Origin: Bacteriovoracia bacterium
Lineage (GTDB): Bacteria > Bdellovibrionota > UBA1018 > JBFWNL01
DNA: 64,000 bases
Assembly (NCBI GenBank): GCA_050251055.1
Contig: JBFWNL010000001.1
Coordinates: 299,825-363,824, forward strand
Reading direction: 5' to 3'
Positions 16,373 to 62,560 of the stretch are shown here, piece after piece (the stretch's first letter is position 1; each line of letters opens with the position of its first letter). The notes under the pieces are model-generated. The model worked only from the letters and a program-made list of their open reading frames with translations, ran no database searches and had not been told where the DNA came from. The position numbers were made by a program, and so were the translations under genes.

Positions 16373-16457
<85 letters not shown>

Positions 16458-16494
16458 CTTTTCCTTTTCTCTTTTAAAAAATAAAAACCCAACT

Positions 16495-16552
16495 GGGGGA
16501 CGCGCTTCCTGCGCTCGGCCCCTCAGCGCCTTCCTGGCCCGCGGACACCCCC
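16495..16552 (+). repeat. Dispersed double-hairpin repeat, core copy A
   Basis: GGGGGACGCGCTTCCTGCGC...CTCAGCGCCTTCCTGGCCCGCGGACACCCCC; 54/59 identical (counted by eye) to the reverse complement of 59323-59381. Confidence 0.9.
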
Positions 16553-16603
16553 TACCCAGTCTTTGAAGTGTAACTTTTCGGCTCGGAAGCCGTATTAGCC
16601 CGC

Positions 16604-56942: not shown

Positions 56943-57920
56943 ATGGCACTTTTAAGCGTTCAAGACTTGCGTACATATTTTCATACCCGCAACGGGGTCG
57001 TGAAGGCCGTGGACGGCATTTCCTTCGACCTGGAAAGGGGCGAAACGCTTGGCATCGTGGGCGAGAGCGGCTCCGGCAAATCAGTTTCGAATTACTCGAT
57101 CTTGAGCCTGATCCCCATGCCGCCTGGCCGCATCGAATCGGGTTCGGCCGTGTTCGACGGAGTCGACTTACTGAAATGTTCGAAGGATCAGCTCCGCAAG
57201 ATCCGCGGCAACCGAATTTCCATGATTTTCCAGGATCCCATGACCTGCCTAAATCCCTACCTCAAAGTAGGCTTTCAGATCATGGAGCCCCTACTCCTGC
57301 ATAAGCAGATGAACAAATTCGATGCCAGCAAGAAGGTGGTCGAAGCGCTCCGCCAAGTTGGGATCCGGGATCCCGAGGCACGCATGAATCAATACCCGCA
57401 CCAGTTCTCGGGCGGGATGCGGCAGCGCGTGATGATTGCCATGGCCCTCATCACCGAACCCGAGCTTCTAATCGCCGACGAACCGACGACCGCGTTGGAT
57501 GTGACCGTCCAAGCGCAAATCCTCGACCTGATCCGCAAGCTCCAGCGCGAAAAGGGCACCGCCGTCATCTTCATCACCCACGACTTAGGCGTAATCGCGA
57601 GCATGGCCAAGCGGGTCCTGGTCATGTACGCCGGCCGGGTGGCCGAAGCCGGAACGACGATGGATATCTTTAAGCGCCCTAAACACCCCTATACCAAGGC
57701 TCTCATGGCCTCAATTCCCGCGACCCATGCGCGCGGCGAAGAACTTTATACTATTCCGGGCATGCCGCCGGACGTATCGAAGAAAATTAATGGCTGCGCT
57801 TTCGCCCCCCGCTGTTCGTTCGCGCTCGCGACCTGCCGGGAGCGCGACCCCCGCGCGCTCGAGGTTGAAACCGCGCATCTTTCGGCCTGCTTACGTGTCC
57901 AGGAAGGAGCGGTGCTATGA
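56943..57920 (+). CDS. oppD: Oligopeptide ABC ATP-binding protein
   Basis: [31 protein letters not shown]. Confidence 0.95.
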
Positions 57921-58939
57921 GTATCCCTACGGACGGCACGGCCAATCCCAACTTCTTGCAGCTCAAAGACGTCAAGACCTACTTCCCGATTACCTCCGGA
58001 TTATTCGTCCAGAAAGTCCGCGCAACGGTCAGGGCCGTCGACGGGGTCAATTTGACCGTCGCCAAGGGTGAGGTTCTGGGTTTGGTCGGGGAAAGCGGCT
58101 GCGGTAAATCCACCCTGGGCCGCACGATCATGCAGCTCATCCCCCCAACTGCGGGCAACGTGGAACTGGCGGGCGTTACCCTGAACACCTTGCCGCCGGA
58201 GCGACTCCGCACCGAACGGCCGCGCTTCCAGATGATCTTCCAGGACCCCTACTCGTCGCTCAACCCGCGCATGACGGTTTTCGACATCCTGGCCGAACCG
58301 CTGCTTTACCACCGCCGCGCTACCTCGGCTAACATCGCCGAAAAGGTTTCCACGCTCATGACGGAAGTGGGCCTGGCCCCACGCTTCATGAAGAAATACC
58401 CGCACGAGTTTTCGGGCGGCCAGCGTCAACGCATCGCTATCGCGCGGGCATTGGCTTTGGAACCTGAAGTAATCGTTGCCGACGAACCTGTCTCCGCTCT
58501 TGATGTCTCGATTCAATCGCAAATCCTGAACCTGCTCGTGCAGCTGACGCGCAAGCGCAACCTCACGATGATTTTTATTTCCCACGACCTATCGGTGATT
58601 AAGCATATCTCCGACCGTGTGGCCGTAATGTACCTGGGCAAGATCGTGGAGCTTGGGCGCACCGAAGAGATCTTTGCGGCCCCCAAACACCCGTACACCC
58701 AGGCCCTGCTCTCGGCGATCTCGCTGCCGGACCCGGAGGCAGAATCCAAGCGTAAGCGGATTCTCTTAGAAGGCGACCCGCCGTCGCCGATCAACCCACC
58801 TTCAGGGTGCGCCTTCCATCCCCGCTGCCCGCACGCGCGCGATTTCTGCGCGAAGCAGACGCCGAAGCTTGAAAACTTCCCGGCGCCCACGCACCACGAA
58901 GTGTCGTGCCTGCGCGCGCACGAAATCAATCCAGCCTAA
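57917..58939 (+). CDS. oppF: Oligopeptide ABC ATP-binding protein
   Basis: GESGCGKS, SLNPR, SGGQRQR, DEPVSALD, PSPINPPSGC. Confidence 0.95.
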   Translation: MSIPTDGTANPNFLQLKDVKTYFPITSGLFVQKVRATVRAVDGVNLTVAKGEVLGLVGESGCGKSTLGRTIMQLIPPTAGNVELAGVTLNTLPPERLRTERPRFQMIFQDPYSSLNPRMTVFDILAEPLLYHRRATSANIAEKVSTLMTEVGLAPRFMKKYPHEFSGGQRQRIAIARALALEPEVIVADEPVSALDVSIQSQILNLLVQLTRKRNLTMIFISHDLSVIKHISDRVAVMYLGKIVELGRTEEIFAAPKHPYTQALLSAISLPDPEAESKRKRILLEGDPPSPINPPSGCAFHPRCPHARDFCAKQTPKLENFPAPTHHEVSCLRAHEINPA

Positions 58940-58953
58940 TAACTCTCCGCTCA

Positions 58954-59013
58954 GACGGGGGACGCCCATCCGTGGGCTCAATTGTTCAGCGCCCTCGTGG
59001 CCCGTGGATGCCC
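58954..59013 (+). repeat. Dispersed double-hairpin repeat, diverged core copy B
   Basis: 46/60 ungapped identity (counted by eye) to the reverse complement of 59325-59384. Confidence 0.8.
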
Positions 59014-59192
59014 AAATAAGTCCGCTTTTAGAAAGGACGATAGCCCTATGTTTGGCTACGGTTTTTATGACTTCAGAGTCGTGCGCGACGTGAGCAATTG
59101 TGCAGATGGTTAGTGGAATGGGGTTTCCCAAGGCCACAAATATTTTGCTGCACTTGTGGCCGGCGTATAAGACGGCACTAGCCACTGAAAGC

Positions 59193-59232
59193 GAGATTAG
59201 AGAGACCGCTGAAAAGCGGTTTCTCTAATCTC
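59193..59232 (+). other. 18-bp hairpin with GAAA tetraloop
   Basis: GAGATTAGAGAGACCGCT-GAAA-AGCGGTTTCTCTAATCTC (17 Watson-Crick pairs + 1 G:U). Confidence 0.8.
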
Positions 59233-59290
59233 AATTGCAAGCCGAACCTGGACAGCATATCCGTCCACGCTTCACATAAATCTGGGTATG

Positions 59291-59413
59291 CAGGATTCCC
59301 TGCTTTAAAAACTCGGACCGGCGGGGGTGTCCGCGGGCCAGGACGGCGCTGAGCGGTCAAGCGCATGGAAGCGCGTCCCCCGTCGGTCCGAGTTTTTAAA
59401 GGAGGGAATCCTG
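59291..59413 (-). repeat. Full-length palindromic element (copy C): 37-bp inverted arms enclosing two small hairpins
   Basis: Arms 59291-59327 and 59377-59413 give 35 Watson-Crick pairs, 1 G:T and 1 G.G; inner hairpins GCC-AGGAC-GGC and GCGC-ATGGAA-GCGC on the + strand. Confidence 0.9.
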
Positions 59414-59424
59414 TCCAGCTAGAT

Positions 59425-61206
59425 TCACGCGGGAAAGCGGCAGATAAAGACGCTCCCCTGACCGGGAGTGCTCTCGACGGAGATGCTCCCACCGTGCCGT
59501 TGCATGATATGCTTGACGATCGCGAGCCCCAGCCCCGTGCCTCCCATCTCGCGCGAGCGGGCCTTGTCGATGCGGTAAAACCGCTCGAACAGGCGCCCTT
59601 GGTGCTCGGCCGGGATGCCGGGTCCGGTGTCGGACACCTTTAGAACCACGTCGCCCCGGATGCCCTCTTCCCAGCTCACGGAAATTTTTCCGCCACGTGG
59701 GGTATACTTCTTGGCGTTATCCAGGAGATTCACCAGCACCTGCTCCAAGCGACCGGGATCGGCATGCACCGTGGCCACGGGAATGTTTACATGCACCTGC
59801 TGGGCTTTCTCGCTAAAGCCCCCGCGAAGTTGCTCTAACACCCGGGAGGTTACCTGCTCCGTACTGACTTCGGCGCGATTCAGCGCTTCCGAAGACTCTA
59901 ACGAGGAAAGGTCGAGCAAATCGTTAATTAATGTCATGAGGCGGGCAGAATTTCGCGCCACGGCCTTCAGGTGATCGGGATCCAACGGCCGCCCGTCGGC
60001 CAGATCCTGGTTCAAGGTGTCCGTATATCCTTTGATCGCCGTCAGCGGGGTGCGCAGCTCATGGGAAACGTTAGCCACGAAGTCGATACGCATCTGCTCG
60101 GCGCGCTTGAGTTCGGTCACGTCGTGGAAGACCCCGACGGCGCCGTATACCTCACCACGGGAGCGGCGGAGCGGGGAAATCGCCACCGAGAAATAAAGCG
60201 GGTCATCCCCGCGGGGGCCCCGATTAAAGAACATCGCTTGGATAATCTGCGGCTGCCCCAGCCGCAGCGCCGAACGGAACGCGTCCAGCACCGCGGGCTC
60301 GCGAAAAGTCTCCCAGATCCGCTTTCCTTCCGTGAGCCCGTTTTCAGCCAAGATCGCCATGCGGCTGTTATAGAAAAGCGGGTTGCCTTCGAGGTCGATG
60401 GCCAAAATCGCGTCCGAAATAGCGCTCATGAGGGTCGCTTGCTGCTCGCGCTCCAGACTCAAGGCCTCCACCTTGGTCTGCAGATCCTTGCGAATACTGT
60501 CGATGGAGGTCTCGAGATCCGCCCACTCCCCATAAACGTCCCGCCGGAACTCCCGTTCGACGCCTTCCGACGCCAAGCTAGGATCGGCTTTCAATATGCT
60601 TTGGACCTGGCTGAAAACGTTATTCAGCGGCAACACCCAGGCCCGTCCCGTCCAAATAGCAAAGCCAAACAACGCCAGCGCAACGGCGATCAGGAAAAAG
60701 AAAAGTGAGGTGTCGTATACCCGCAAGGTGGCATCCAGCCTCGTCAACGGCGCGGCGACGCGCAAGACGGAAAGCTCATTACGCGCCTGCCGTTGGGCGC
60801 TGTACATCATGGGAAGGCCCAGCGTCTGGCTCTCGCGTACGTCCTGTCCGTAGCCATCCGTGAGCGCAGCTTGCACCTCGGGACGAGTCCCGTGATTCTG
60901 CATCTGTTCCGCTTTCTCGTGAGAATCACAATATACGCGCCCGTCCACGCCGATAACCGTGACACGCAAACCGGTGCCCTGGGTGACCGTCGTGCACCAC
61001 TCCAACGGCAGTGGCCAAGGCATCTGGTTGGCCACTCCCTGCAAGGTATCTTTGAGTTGGCTCTGAAACTGAATCGTGAACTGTTTCTTAAAGAAATAAT
61101 GCGCCGCCAGCCCTGACGCTCCCAAAGCCAGGAGCACCATGAAGGTCTGGGTCAAAACGACGCGGGAAAAGACCCGCCAGGAGAGCAGGGAGACCGTGGA
61201 TTTCAT
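59425..61206 (-). CDS. phoR: Phosphate regulon sensor histidine kinase
   Basis: Periplasmic sensor (NHGTRPEV), PAS, DFVANVSHELRTPL, NLLDNA, DTGPGI, GGTGLGLAI; pst/phoU context. Confidence 0.92.
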   Translation of the reverse strand: MKSTVSLLSWRVFSRVVLTQTFMVLLALGASGLAAHYFFKKQFTIQFQSQLKDTLQGVANQMPWPLPLEWCTTVTQGTGLRVTVIGVDGRVYCDSHEKAEQMQNHGTRPEVQAALTDGYGQDVRESQTLGLPMMYSAQRQARNELSVLRVAAPLTRLDATLRVYDTSLFFFLIAVALALFGFAIWTGRAWVLPLNNVFSQVQSILKADPSLASEGVEREFRRDVYGEWADLETSIDSIRKDLQTKVEALSLEREQQATLMSAISDAILAIDLEGNPLFYNSRMAILAENGLTEGKRIWETFREPAVLDAFRSALRLGQPQIIQAMFFNRGPRGDDPLYFSVAISPLRRSRGEVYGAVGVFHDVTELKRAEQMRIDFVANVSHELRTPLTAIKGYTDTLNQDLADGRPLDPDHLKAVARNSARLMTLINDLLDLSSLESSEALNRAEVSTEQVTSRVLEQLRGGFSEKAQQVHVNIPVATVHADPGRLEQVLVNLLDNAKKYTPRGGKISVSWEEGIRGDVVLKVSDTGPGIPAEHQGRLFERFYRIDKARSREMGGTGLGLAIVKHIMQRHGGSISVESTPGQGSVFICRFPA

Positions 61207-61883
61207 TCCAACTGAATACGATAGCCGACGCCGCGGATGGTTTCCACGAAATCCCCGCAGACTCCGAGTTTCTTACGCAAACCAAAGACGTGGGTGTCGA
61301 TGGCGCGATCGATGACTTTCACCCCCTCGCCCTGAACGCAGTCGATCAACTTTTCCCGCGAAAGGACCCGGCCTTGGTTTCGCAGTAAAGCCGTGAGCAG
61401 CTTGAATTCGGAGGGGGTCAGCTCGATTTTATCCTGGCCACAGGCCACTTCGTGACGCTCGATGTTCATTACGAGCTGCCGGTGCCGAAGCTCATTGGCG
61501 CTCTCGAGCGAATTCTCCGGACCTGTTCGCTCGCCGCGGCGTAACAGGGCGCGCACGCGCGCCAGGAACACCGGTATATCGAAAGGCTTGGTGATGTAAT
61601 CATCCGCGCCAGCTTCCAGGCCAACGATAATATCGGCCGAATCCGCGCGGGCCGTCACCATCAAGATCGGACAGCGGCCGCGGTATTTCTTGCAAAGTTC
61701 CAAGCCCGTCAATCCCGGCAACATCCAATCGAATATCGCTAGCTGAAACGTCCCTTCGGCGAAGGCGCGGACGGCGTTCTCGCCGTCCGAAACGGCCGTC
61801 ACGTCCAGCCCTTCCCGCTTCAGGTGTAACACCAATAAGTCCTGAACGTCTTTCTCGTCTTCGACGACCAGGACTTTCTTCAA
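61203..61883 (-). CDS. phoB: OmpR-family response regulator of the phosphate regulon
   Basis: VVEDE, DWMLPG, GADDYITKPF, TIRGVGY; between phoU and phoR. Confidence 0.88.
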   Translation of the reverse strand: MKKVLVVEDEKDVQDLLVLHLKREGLDVTAVSDGENAVRAFAEGTFQLAIFDWMLPGLTGLELCKKYRGRCPILMVTARADSADIIVGLEAGADDYITKPFDIPVFLARVRALLRRGERTGPENSLESANELRHRQLVMNIERHEVACGQDKIELTPSEFKLLTALLRNQGRVLSREKLIDCVQGEGVKVIDRAIDTHVFGLRKKLGVCGDFVETIRGVGYRIQLE

Positions 61884-62560
61884 GGCGAGGCCCCACTTCC
61901 ACCGACATCTTGGGCATGGCGGATGTCCCGGCCCGTTACCACGTAAATCACGTCCTCGGCGATGTTGGTGGCGTGATCGCCCAGACGTTCGAGATTGCGG
62001 GCGATCAGGATGAGCGCCAAACCCGCATCGATACCCGCGGGCTTCTGTTTCATGATCGCCACTACATCGTTAAACACCTTGCGTTTCAGCTCATCCACCT
62101 TATCATCACGCTTCAGCACTTCGCGGGCCTGGGCTTCGCTCGCGGTGACGAAAGAGTCGATCGCGACCCGGACCATGACCTTCACTTCTTCGAACATCTG
62201 CGCCAAATCGATCAAGGGCTTGAGCTCGGGCTGCTTGAGGTAAAATTCCGCATTGTGGGCAATGTTCACCGCCTGGTCACCCATACGCTCGAGGTCGGTA
62301 TTGATTTTAATCACCGATACGATGAGCCTCAGATCGATGGCCATCGGCTGGTGCAACGCCAAAAGCTTCACGCAAGCGTCGTCCACCGCAATATGATCCT
62401 GGTTCACCTTTTTTTCGATCTCAAAGACTTCTTGGATGACGGCTAGGTCGCGGGATTTCAAACCCCGGATCGCGGTATCGATGGCCCGCTCGACGTATCC
62501 CGCCATGCCCACTAAAAGCTCGCGCAGCTCTCGAATCGAGTGCTCGAAATGTCTTTCCAT
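61880..62560 (-). CDS. phoU: Phosphate signalling protein PhoU
   Basis: QPMAIDLR, DLERMGD, NLERLGDHATNIAE. Confidence 0.96.
   Translation of the reverse strand: MERHFEHSIRELRELLVGMAGYVERAIDTAIRGLKSRDLAVIQEVFEIEKKVNQDHIAVDDACVKLLALHQPMAIDLRLIVSVIKINTDLERMGDQAVNIAHNAEFYLKQPELKPLIDLAQMFEEVKVMVRVAIDSFVTASEAQAREVLKRDDKVDELKRKVFNDVVAIMKQKPAGIDAGLALILIARNLERLGDHATNIAEDVIYVVTGRDIRHAQDVGGSGASP

Follow-up and report, generated by a model that had tools for sequence, protein, structure and literature searches.

We found that a 123-bp palindromic element at positions 59291-59413 of the window (the whole 64,000-nucleotide stretch analysed, contig C1:299825-363824) belongs to a family of about 28 copies in its genome, a 3.77-Mb assembly of 21 contigs with 57.8% GC and 93.5% completeness. 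Each copy carries a conserved Y-shaped tip whose helices covary, and nearly every tip caps a long, near-perfect inverted repeat whose arm sequence differs from locus to locus. Seventeen copies lie just behind tRNA genes in one uniform orientation, and related tips occur in other genomes of the order; the structured repeat is real and order-wide. New here are the tip that caps locus-unique arms, the anchoring at tRNA ends, the uniform orientation and the spread in the order, while the architecture, which resembles that of TwoAYGGAY RNAs, is known.

Direct reading, an inverted-repeat scan and folding gave the following anatomy of the element and its neighbour:

59291..59413, minus strand as the TCC-loop strand: complete element, Y tip on a 37-bp stem
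59291..59327, no strand assigned: left arm, 37 nt, with an A-run at 59306-59310 and the G5 clamp at 59323-59327
59328..59376, no strand assigned: asymmetric tip interior, 49 nt, with the hairpin GCC/GGC, loop AGGAC, at 59337-59347
59331-59334 with 59353-59356: tip-interior helix CCGC/GCGG
59361-59374: tip-interior hairpin GCGC/GCGC, loop ATGGAA
59377..59413, no strand assigned: right arm, 37 nt, with the C5 clamp at 59377-59381 and a T5 run at 59393-59397
59425..61206, minus strand: PhoR-like histidine kinase (PAS-HisKA-HATPase), 3′ end 12 nt from the element

By direct reading the inverted 37-nt arms contain 2 mismatches, and the inverted-repeat search extended them to 49 nt at 86% complementarity. 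On the + strand the interior reads GCC-AGGAC-GGC and GCGC-ATGGAA-GCGC; the TCC loops lie on the sense strand of the histidine-kinase gene, and the T-run of this copy is the T5 only. Folding of the 123-nt element yielded minimum free energies of −89.9 (+ strand) and −80.5 kcal/mol (− strand), with z of −11.5 and −10.6, and 0 of 200 shuffles were as stable on either strand. Isolated 68-nt tips folded no better than shuffles (z ~0), indicating that the extreme stability stems from the arms. The 123-bp element with 37-nt arms and two GGA-loop hairpins that the first-pass annotation had described was thus confirmed by reading and by folding. Its label 'phoR' for the neighbouring gene is based on PAS-HisKA-HATPase domains encoded beside an OmpR-type regulator; the nearest named relatives of this gene were Bdellovibrionota/Oligoflexia MAGs at no more than 56% identity.

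The same annotation had reported two further copies of the core in the window, and both were recovered with covariance model R1, which scored the flagged copy at 91.8 bits (59316-59388):

16373..16457, plus strand: tRNA-Leu(gag), whose trailer bears the copy at 16488-16559
16488..16559, plus strand: copy with decayed arms (6 nt), 63.6 bits, TCC strand sense
57917..58939, plus strand: OppF/DppF-type ABC ATPase gene (ABC_tran and oligo_HPY), upstream neighbour of the 58950 copy
58950..59022, plus strand: degenerate copy with almost no arms, 59.4 bits, TCC strand sense

The segment 16495-16552 matched the flagged element at 91.5% over 59 nt (54/59), its tip starting 38 nt behind the tRNA-Leu(gag) end (16457). 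The degenerate recurrence at 58954-59013 is 71% complementary to the flagged element over 82 nt, and its tip starts 15 nt behind the end of the OppF-type ATPase reading frame (58939); its helix 3 contains four G-U pairs on the TCC strand, which are A-C on the GGA strand. All three window copies therefore lie close behind 3′ ends (38, 15 and 12 nt), with the TCC-loop strand sense in each, as had been claimed. The other two, in contrast to the flagged element, have arms of just 4-6 nt. A separate hairpin was seen between the 58950 copy and the flagged element (window 59186-59239, 25-nt arms, 84% complementary, 4-nt loop); around it, 59096-59230 gave a sub-threshold match to the alphaproteobacterial sRNA ar35 (29.3 versus 45 bits, E 0.002).

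Genome-wide, iterated nhmmer searches retrieved 22 full copies and 3 partial ones, 25 in all; 23 copies served to build covariance model R1, which gave 26 matches, and a palindrome scan added two divergent tips on contig C3, which brings the family to about 28. The prediction of many more copies was therefore correct, and the refutation by 'only three copies' fails. The tip is a conserved asymmetric Y of ~57 nt. Read on the TCC strand, it consists of a G4-5/C4-5 clamp, a hairpin with the loop (A/T)TCCAT, a short three-way helix and a second hairpin with the loop NTCCT or NTCGT; on the GGA strand the loop of hairpin 1 is AUGGAU or AUGGAA in most copies and that of hairpin 2 has 5 nt (AGGAN, ACGAN or ACAAC). 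Half copies arise through small deletions at short repeats.

Covariation, which the first-pass annotation had asked to be tested, was strong by pair counts. In the 23-copy alignment pairing was kept in 90.5% of 566 cells and both sides had changed in 17 of 25 pairs; none of 500 shuffles reached the observed values, and slid controls were 35-50% paired. One pair of hairpin 1, for example, alternates between C-G (13 copies) and G-C (10), and one pair of the three-way helix between G-C (12), A-U (8) and G-U (3). Wobble was rare, G-U making up ~3% of pairs overall. On the TCC strand, G-U outnumbered A-C by 15 to 5 in the tip helices of this genome, with 3 of the 15 being alignment artefacts, and by 8 to 5 in relatives; taken over arms and tips, in this genome and in relatives, wobble counts showed no consistent strand bias. 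Pairing is essentially Watson-Crick on both strands.

We found that the arms behave differently from the tip. They are 32-84 nt long with 0-12 mismatches, mostly in an outer 'bubble'. A genome-wide inverted-repeat scan (12-nt seed, spacer up to 120) detected 31 long inverted repeats, 25 of which contain the tip, so that long palindromes are a feature of the element and not of the genome's terminators. We also considered insertion of the tip into generic long palindromes that were already present; this idea is weakened, as only 6 of the 31 are without it. When isoacceptor paralogues were compared (Ser, Ala, Gln and Val pairs), the tips proved 85-93% alike, against 48-68% for the arms, yet within a single copy one arm departs from the other at only 0-3 of 32-47 positions. 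The tip is thus either constrained or homogenised, and the arms drift yet stay complementary. At four loci with unrelated arms the tips are 96-98% alike, which recent insertion fits as well as gene conversion. Mismatches in rows with an arm comprised 14 sense-wobble and 18 antisense-wobble changes and 21 transversions, so the arms show no RNA signature. Flanking direct repeats of the 25 palindromes reached 0-4 nt at most, the same as in a shifted control, giving no target-site duplication. Candidates for the making and symmetry of the arms are hairpin-templated correction, known as quasi-palindrome template switching, and fold-back copying at insertion.

The main partners of the family proved to be tRNA genes. 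The placement at gene 3′ ends proposed in the first-pass annotation held for 3′ ends as such, with protein genes as the lesser partners. ARAGORN identified 45 tRNA genes in the genome; 17 of these 45 are followed after 24-59 nt by a copy, which accounts for 17 of the 28; by position alone ~0.03 copies would be expected there by chance (45 × 70 nt / 3.77 Mb, × 28). Three further copies stand behind tRNA-like 3′ ends, one a tRNA-Ser fragment and two the ends of the M2 module described below, and the others in gaps between protein genes that are convergent or in tandem. All tRNA-linked copies (17/17) have their TCC loops on the sense strand of the tRNA. With two tandem-gene copies and two window copies added, the bias has no exception where the transcribed strand is evident, so that the non-random orientation suggested earlier was borne out.

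Moreover, the proximal arm starts 5-14 nt within the tRNA acceptor/CCA end in 14 of the 17 tRNA-linked copies, and the distal arm consequently carries the reverse complement of the tRNA end. Using a criterion of at least 12 nt with at most 1 mismatch, we found an inverted copy of the tRNA-end/trailer junction within 320 nt downstream of 17/45 tRNAs and upstream, as a control, of 0/45; three of these 17 tRNAs (Arg-cct, Arg-acg and Pro-ggg) are without a tip. T-runs (at least 6 T in the 8 nt after the stem) follow the stem on the sense strand in 12/28 copies, on the antisense strand in 16/28 and on both in 11/28, and 12/28 copies have no such run on either strand. No sigma-70-like promoter was detected in locus L011 or in window 58600-59700 by a scanner that is blind to large-loop terminators. 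The sequence TTTATAAT behind the distal arm was tried as a U-tract, which only 4 loci fit, and is better read as a −10-like box for M2; no −35 was found for it.

M2 is an RNA-like module of ~110 nt that follows many tRNA-plus-hairpin units. It has 8 copies in this genome, none of them in the window:

C14:11990-12100, M2 copy
C8:134182-134292, M2 copy
C8:96441-96551, M2 copy
C3:92190-92300, M2 copy
C3:91211-91321, M2 copy
C1:68047-68157, M2 copy
C4:155334-155443, M2 copy
C4:84227-84336, M2 copy

Of its 41 predicted pairs, 18 are compensated, and Rfam returned no match for it. The closing stem of M2 copies the T-stem of the neighbouring tRNA, followed by TTCGA, so that the module resembles a T-loop holding a 95-nt insert. 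A TAnAAT box and a small hairpin stand in front of M2, and in several cases the tRNA 3′ end and trailer are repeated behind it. M2 was present in 20/116 genomes of the order, host included, at up to 112 bits in the 19 others. In relatives, 6 of 7 inspected M2 copies lie behind a tRNA on the tRNA strand, and what separates the tRNA from M2 is either a Y-tipped palindrome or a 13-bp hairpin formed out of the 3′ end of that tRNA.

Several other structures were observed at tRNA ends. Tipless palindromes start in the 3′ end of tRNA-Arg(cct) at C1:208365-208436 and, on C7, downstream of tRNA-Arg(tcg) at 150149; one of the two has 32-nt arms around 8 nt and the other 13-nt arms around 5 nt, and tRNA-Arg(cct) bears a tip in another family (L075). 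A different loop of 54 nt sits on a palindrome with 38-nt arms anchored in a tRNA-Pro 3′ end (C6:135576-135705 and downstream of tRNA-Pro(tgg) at C2:456209); next comes another T-loop-insert module, unrelated to the first, at whose end the tRNA-Pro 3′ end is repeated. One full Y-tipped palindrome on C2 is immediately preceded by a 63-nt fragment (C2:198295-198357) that matches the 3′ portion of the C7 tRNA-Ser(cga) gene at 98% identity; the fragment may have been left behind by an insertion or duplication targeted to a tRNA. A further repeated module, M3, carries two GGA-loop hairpins on the tRNA-sense strand and looks like an inverted armless tip, judged by eye and from shared homology. Its sites, each downstream of the tRNA named with it, are:

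C6:190230-190330, M3 at tRNA-Ser(gga)
C4:265290-265375, M3 at tRNA-Ser(tga)
C2:198510-198600, M3
C9:105920-105995, M3 at tRNA-Val(gac)

The family had been proposed to be lineage-specific, which did not hold. Covariance model R1 gave matches at E ≤0.01 in 18/115 other genomes of the order (19/116 with the host, which is the sole member of its family among the genomes compared). In the 30 re-scored matches of relatives the stems covary, the arms are private and the loops are still ATCC(A)T and (A/T)TCCT, and in 29 distinct sequences from other genomes the same helices covary; GGAU loop cores are conserved in the 18 other genomes. Four of the re-scored matches stand directly behind a tRNA on the tRNA strand and a fifth behind a tRNA-like end. 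In a sample of the phylum, 6/151 genomes matched, host included, one of them from another order of the class with a copy behind tRNA-Ala(ggc). The Val-tac, Asp-gtc and Ala-ggc tRNAs carry the tip in other families or orders too.

These relatives were reached by the covariance model alone, as a plain DNA search matched 0/40 same-order genomes, and a 24-nt IUPAC pattern of the tip had 0 matches in both the genome-contig and the metagenome-contig collection. The tip was missing from all 80 PhoR-like loci of relatives, suggesting that at least the flagged copy was gained. Contigs from metagenome samples X1 and X2 span the site (58244-61969 and 58242-62344), filled and with 0 differences, so that there was no filled/empty polymorphism between the two samples; many read joints near the site in these samples fall in ABC-ATPase genes and derive from other organisms.

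Among known systems, the closest in architecture is TwoAYGGAY (RF01731), in which two GGA-loop hairpins stand on a basal stem that may be long (bioRxiv 10.64898/2026.09.22.753630; PMC2864571). The preprint describes it in Pseudomonas as multi-copy, highly variable in copy number and mobile-like, with Csr/Rsm binding as a proposal, and gives 5-6-nt upstream repeats and a 3′ pseudoknot as further features (bioRxiv 10.64898/2026.09.22.753630). Judged by hairpins, loops and stem, the Y tip shares the two successive hairpins on a common basal stem. It is likewise multi-copy, intergenic and repeat-like, and its hairpin 1 loop AUGGAU, present in many copies, fits AYGGAY. It differs in that its second loop has 5 nt (AGGAN/ACGAN), its first hairpin is nested in the three-way helix, its host phylum is Bdellovibrionota, and its copies are tied to tRNA 3′ ends and have the GGA loops on the antisense strand in every case. 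The RF01731 model matched 0/20 copies at E ≤10, had no match in the window at the gathering threshold and none in 58700-59700 at E ≤10; the best variant reached 28.5 bits (E 0.37, GGA strand) against a threshold of 43 bits. As RF01731 rejects the copies, we filed the Y tip as an architectural relative of TwoAYGGAY and not as a member. The Rfam search proposed in the first-pass annotation returned no family for the tip copies; their novelty is nevertheless lower than that annotation assumed, because a two-GGA-loop Y on a long stem is the TwoAYGGAY architecture. In the literature we found no description of a Y-tip family or of tRNA-end-anchored palindromes in Bdellovibrionota, although the per-order table of the preprint may cover the phylum.

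The Y-tip copies also recall REP/REPIN sequences, likewise short palindromes that lie outside genes, at their 3′ ends and in many cases between convergent ones. REP/REPINs of E. coli and Pseudomonas are mobilised by RAYTs and have been discussed as terminators, mRNA stabilisers and gyrase sites. The analogy, drawn earlier from Gammaproteobacteria, failed here. The host is an uncultured Bdellovibrio-type bacterium, represented by a MAG of Bdellovibrionota, and the search for a RAYT or TnpA-Y1 gene returned no Y1 transposase (PF01797, 0 matches in a genome 93.5% complete). The unit is an asymmetric 57-nt Y, whereas a REP is an imperfect palindrome or stem-loop of 20-40 bp, and REPIN doublets consist of two inverted unit copies, whereas the Y-tip arms are private to each locus. 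In contrast to MITEs, the copies have neither common terminal inverted repeats nor target-site duplications. Bidirectional intrinsic terminators share the GC-rich stem, the A-run and T-run flanks seen in part of the copies, and the position between convergent genes and behind tRNAs, but the Y-tip stems are 32-84 bp long, bear a conserved branched loop and reach with their arms into the tRNA 3′ end. A CsrB/RsmZ-type sponge was considered as well. The partner is encoded (one PF02599 match, 90.9 bits), but the GGA loops exist only antisense to the neighbouring genes. The antisense loops CAGGAUG and AUGGAU read as near-perfect CsrA sites and also match the CsrB repeat. CsrA was present in 108/116 genomes of the order and in 67/67 of good quality; with the tip in only 19/116, co-occurrence is uninformative.

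Based on these results, we favour, at just short of an even chance, a 3′-end hairpin that would act as a bidirectional terminator module, with a constrained tip and a symmetry kept at the DNA level, and that would have spread with tRNA duplicates and by copying between hairpins. In this genome the element is chiefly a hairpin placed behind tRNA genes, tRNA-mimic M2 cassettes and a few protein genes; its stem starts in or just after the gene 3′ end and often has an A-run on one flank and a T-run on the opposite one. It would end and insulate transcription from both directions and cap the 3′ end of the transcript. Its orientation is always such that the neighbour's own transcript displays UCC loops and only an antisense transcript would display CsrA-type GGA loops. 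Copies may multiply with duplicated tRNA genes, and copying at the DNA level may consist of tip exchange between hairpins and arm-to-arm correction, with no transposase. What we infer in this account is that transcription ends here, how copies are made and why they face one way; pairing with covariation, copy number, linkage to tRNAs, strand bias, matching arms and occurrence in the order were observed. The 12/28 copies with no qualifying T-run, and the bare T5 of the flagged copy, weigh against termination. Termination alone is insufficient for the design, since an ordinary terminator needs neither perfect arms of 32-84 bp nor a branched tip. If nothing but the sense strand or the DNA mattered, the near-perfect antisense CsrA sites would have arisen by coincidence.

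In an unlikely alternative, the GGA strand would be functional as a TwoAYGGAY-type small RNA, transcribed convergently to the neighbour's 3′ end and titrating CsrA, with the stem as closing helix and terminator. Such an RNA would present two predicted CsrA-binding hairpin loops ~26 nt apart, and the tip read on this strand is two successive hairpins with the loops AGGAN and AUGGA(A/U), the architecture of TwoAYGGAY. The GGAU cores kept in 18 other genomes, the encoded CsrA, the antisense T-runs of 16/28 copies and the weak RF01731 match of one variant (28.5 bits, E 0.37) are consistent with it. However, no promoter was detected for the GGA strand in L011 or window 58600-59700, and at the 8 M2-linked loci the distal-flank TAnAAT box and hairpin point the opposite way. 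Several copies have ACGAN or ACAAC and not GGA in the second loop, wobble favours the TCC strand where present (four G-U in the 58950 copy), RF01731 matches 0/20 copies at E ≤10, and the co-occurrence of CsrA and tip says nothing. It appears improbable that the sense-strand RNA is the functional form, its UCC loops in trailers and mRNA 3′ ends pairing with GGA RNAs (Shine-Dalgarno sites, CsrA sites or the adjacent GGA-rich M2/M3 RNAs as candidate partners) or binding a protein, and its duplex serving as an RNase III stalk that frees the tRNA. The transcribed strand always bears the UCC loops (17/17, and the tandem-gene and window copies), G-U exceeds A-C in the tips (15 versus 5, 3 artefacts), and GGA-loop hairpins and GGAAGG motifs lie just downstream on the same strand in M2 and M3; tRNA trailers act as RNA sponges in E. 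coli, as with 3′ETS-leuZ, which speaks for the same role. The wobble excess, though, is gone in relatives (8 versus 5) with G-U at ~3% of pairs, the loop-loop pairing was judged by eye only, and no protein is known to read UCC loops. If the inner T-run terminates, moreover, the outer half-stem is untranscribed and an RNA role leaves its perfection unexplained.

Very improbable, in our estimation, is selfish DNA, a non-autonomous hairpin whose arms would be built on landing by a trans-acting enzyme and whose position and orientation would reflect tolerated insertions. Tips 96-98% alike at four loci with unrelated arms, long palindromes found almost only with the tip (25/31), decay visible as half copies from small deletions and the missing tip at 80 orthologous kinase loci would all suit it, as would the strongly varying, mobile-looking copy number of TwoAYGGAY in Pseudomonas. 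Against it, there is no Y1 transposase, target duplication or common terminal repeat; the tips co-diverge with tRNA paralogues and evolve slower than the arms, the same tRNAs (Val-tac, Asp-gtc and Ala-ggc) bear tips in other families or orders, and the site is filled with 0 differences in both metagenome samples. A broader and rather improbable proposal would join the Y-tipped palindrome and M2 in one as yet undescribed system of non-coding cassettes anchored at tRNA genes, in which DNA copying from the tRNA 3′ end would write inverted and direct copies and keep arms of 30-80 bp symmetric, and UCC trailers, produced along with each tRNA transcript, would serve as growth-rate-coupled antagonists of GGA-loop RNAs and hence of the CsrA network.

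Because one strand is always co-transcribed with the tRNA, the family offers the orphan class of TwoAYGGAY-like Y-tipped hairpins a natural experiment on which form carries the function: GGA strand, UCC strand or the DNA itself. The private palindromes, long and kept near-perfect amid drift, point to arm-to-arm correction or fold-back copying in bacteria. In ~40% of the tRNA genes of this predatory-type lineage, the 3′ end of the gene is itself part of a terminal hairpin, which bears on tRNA 3′ maturation and on the evolution of terminators.
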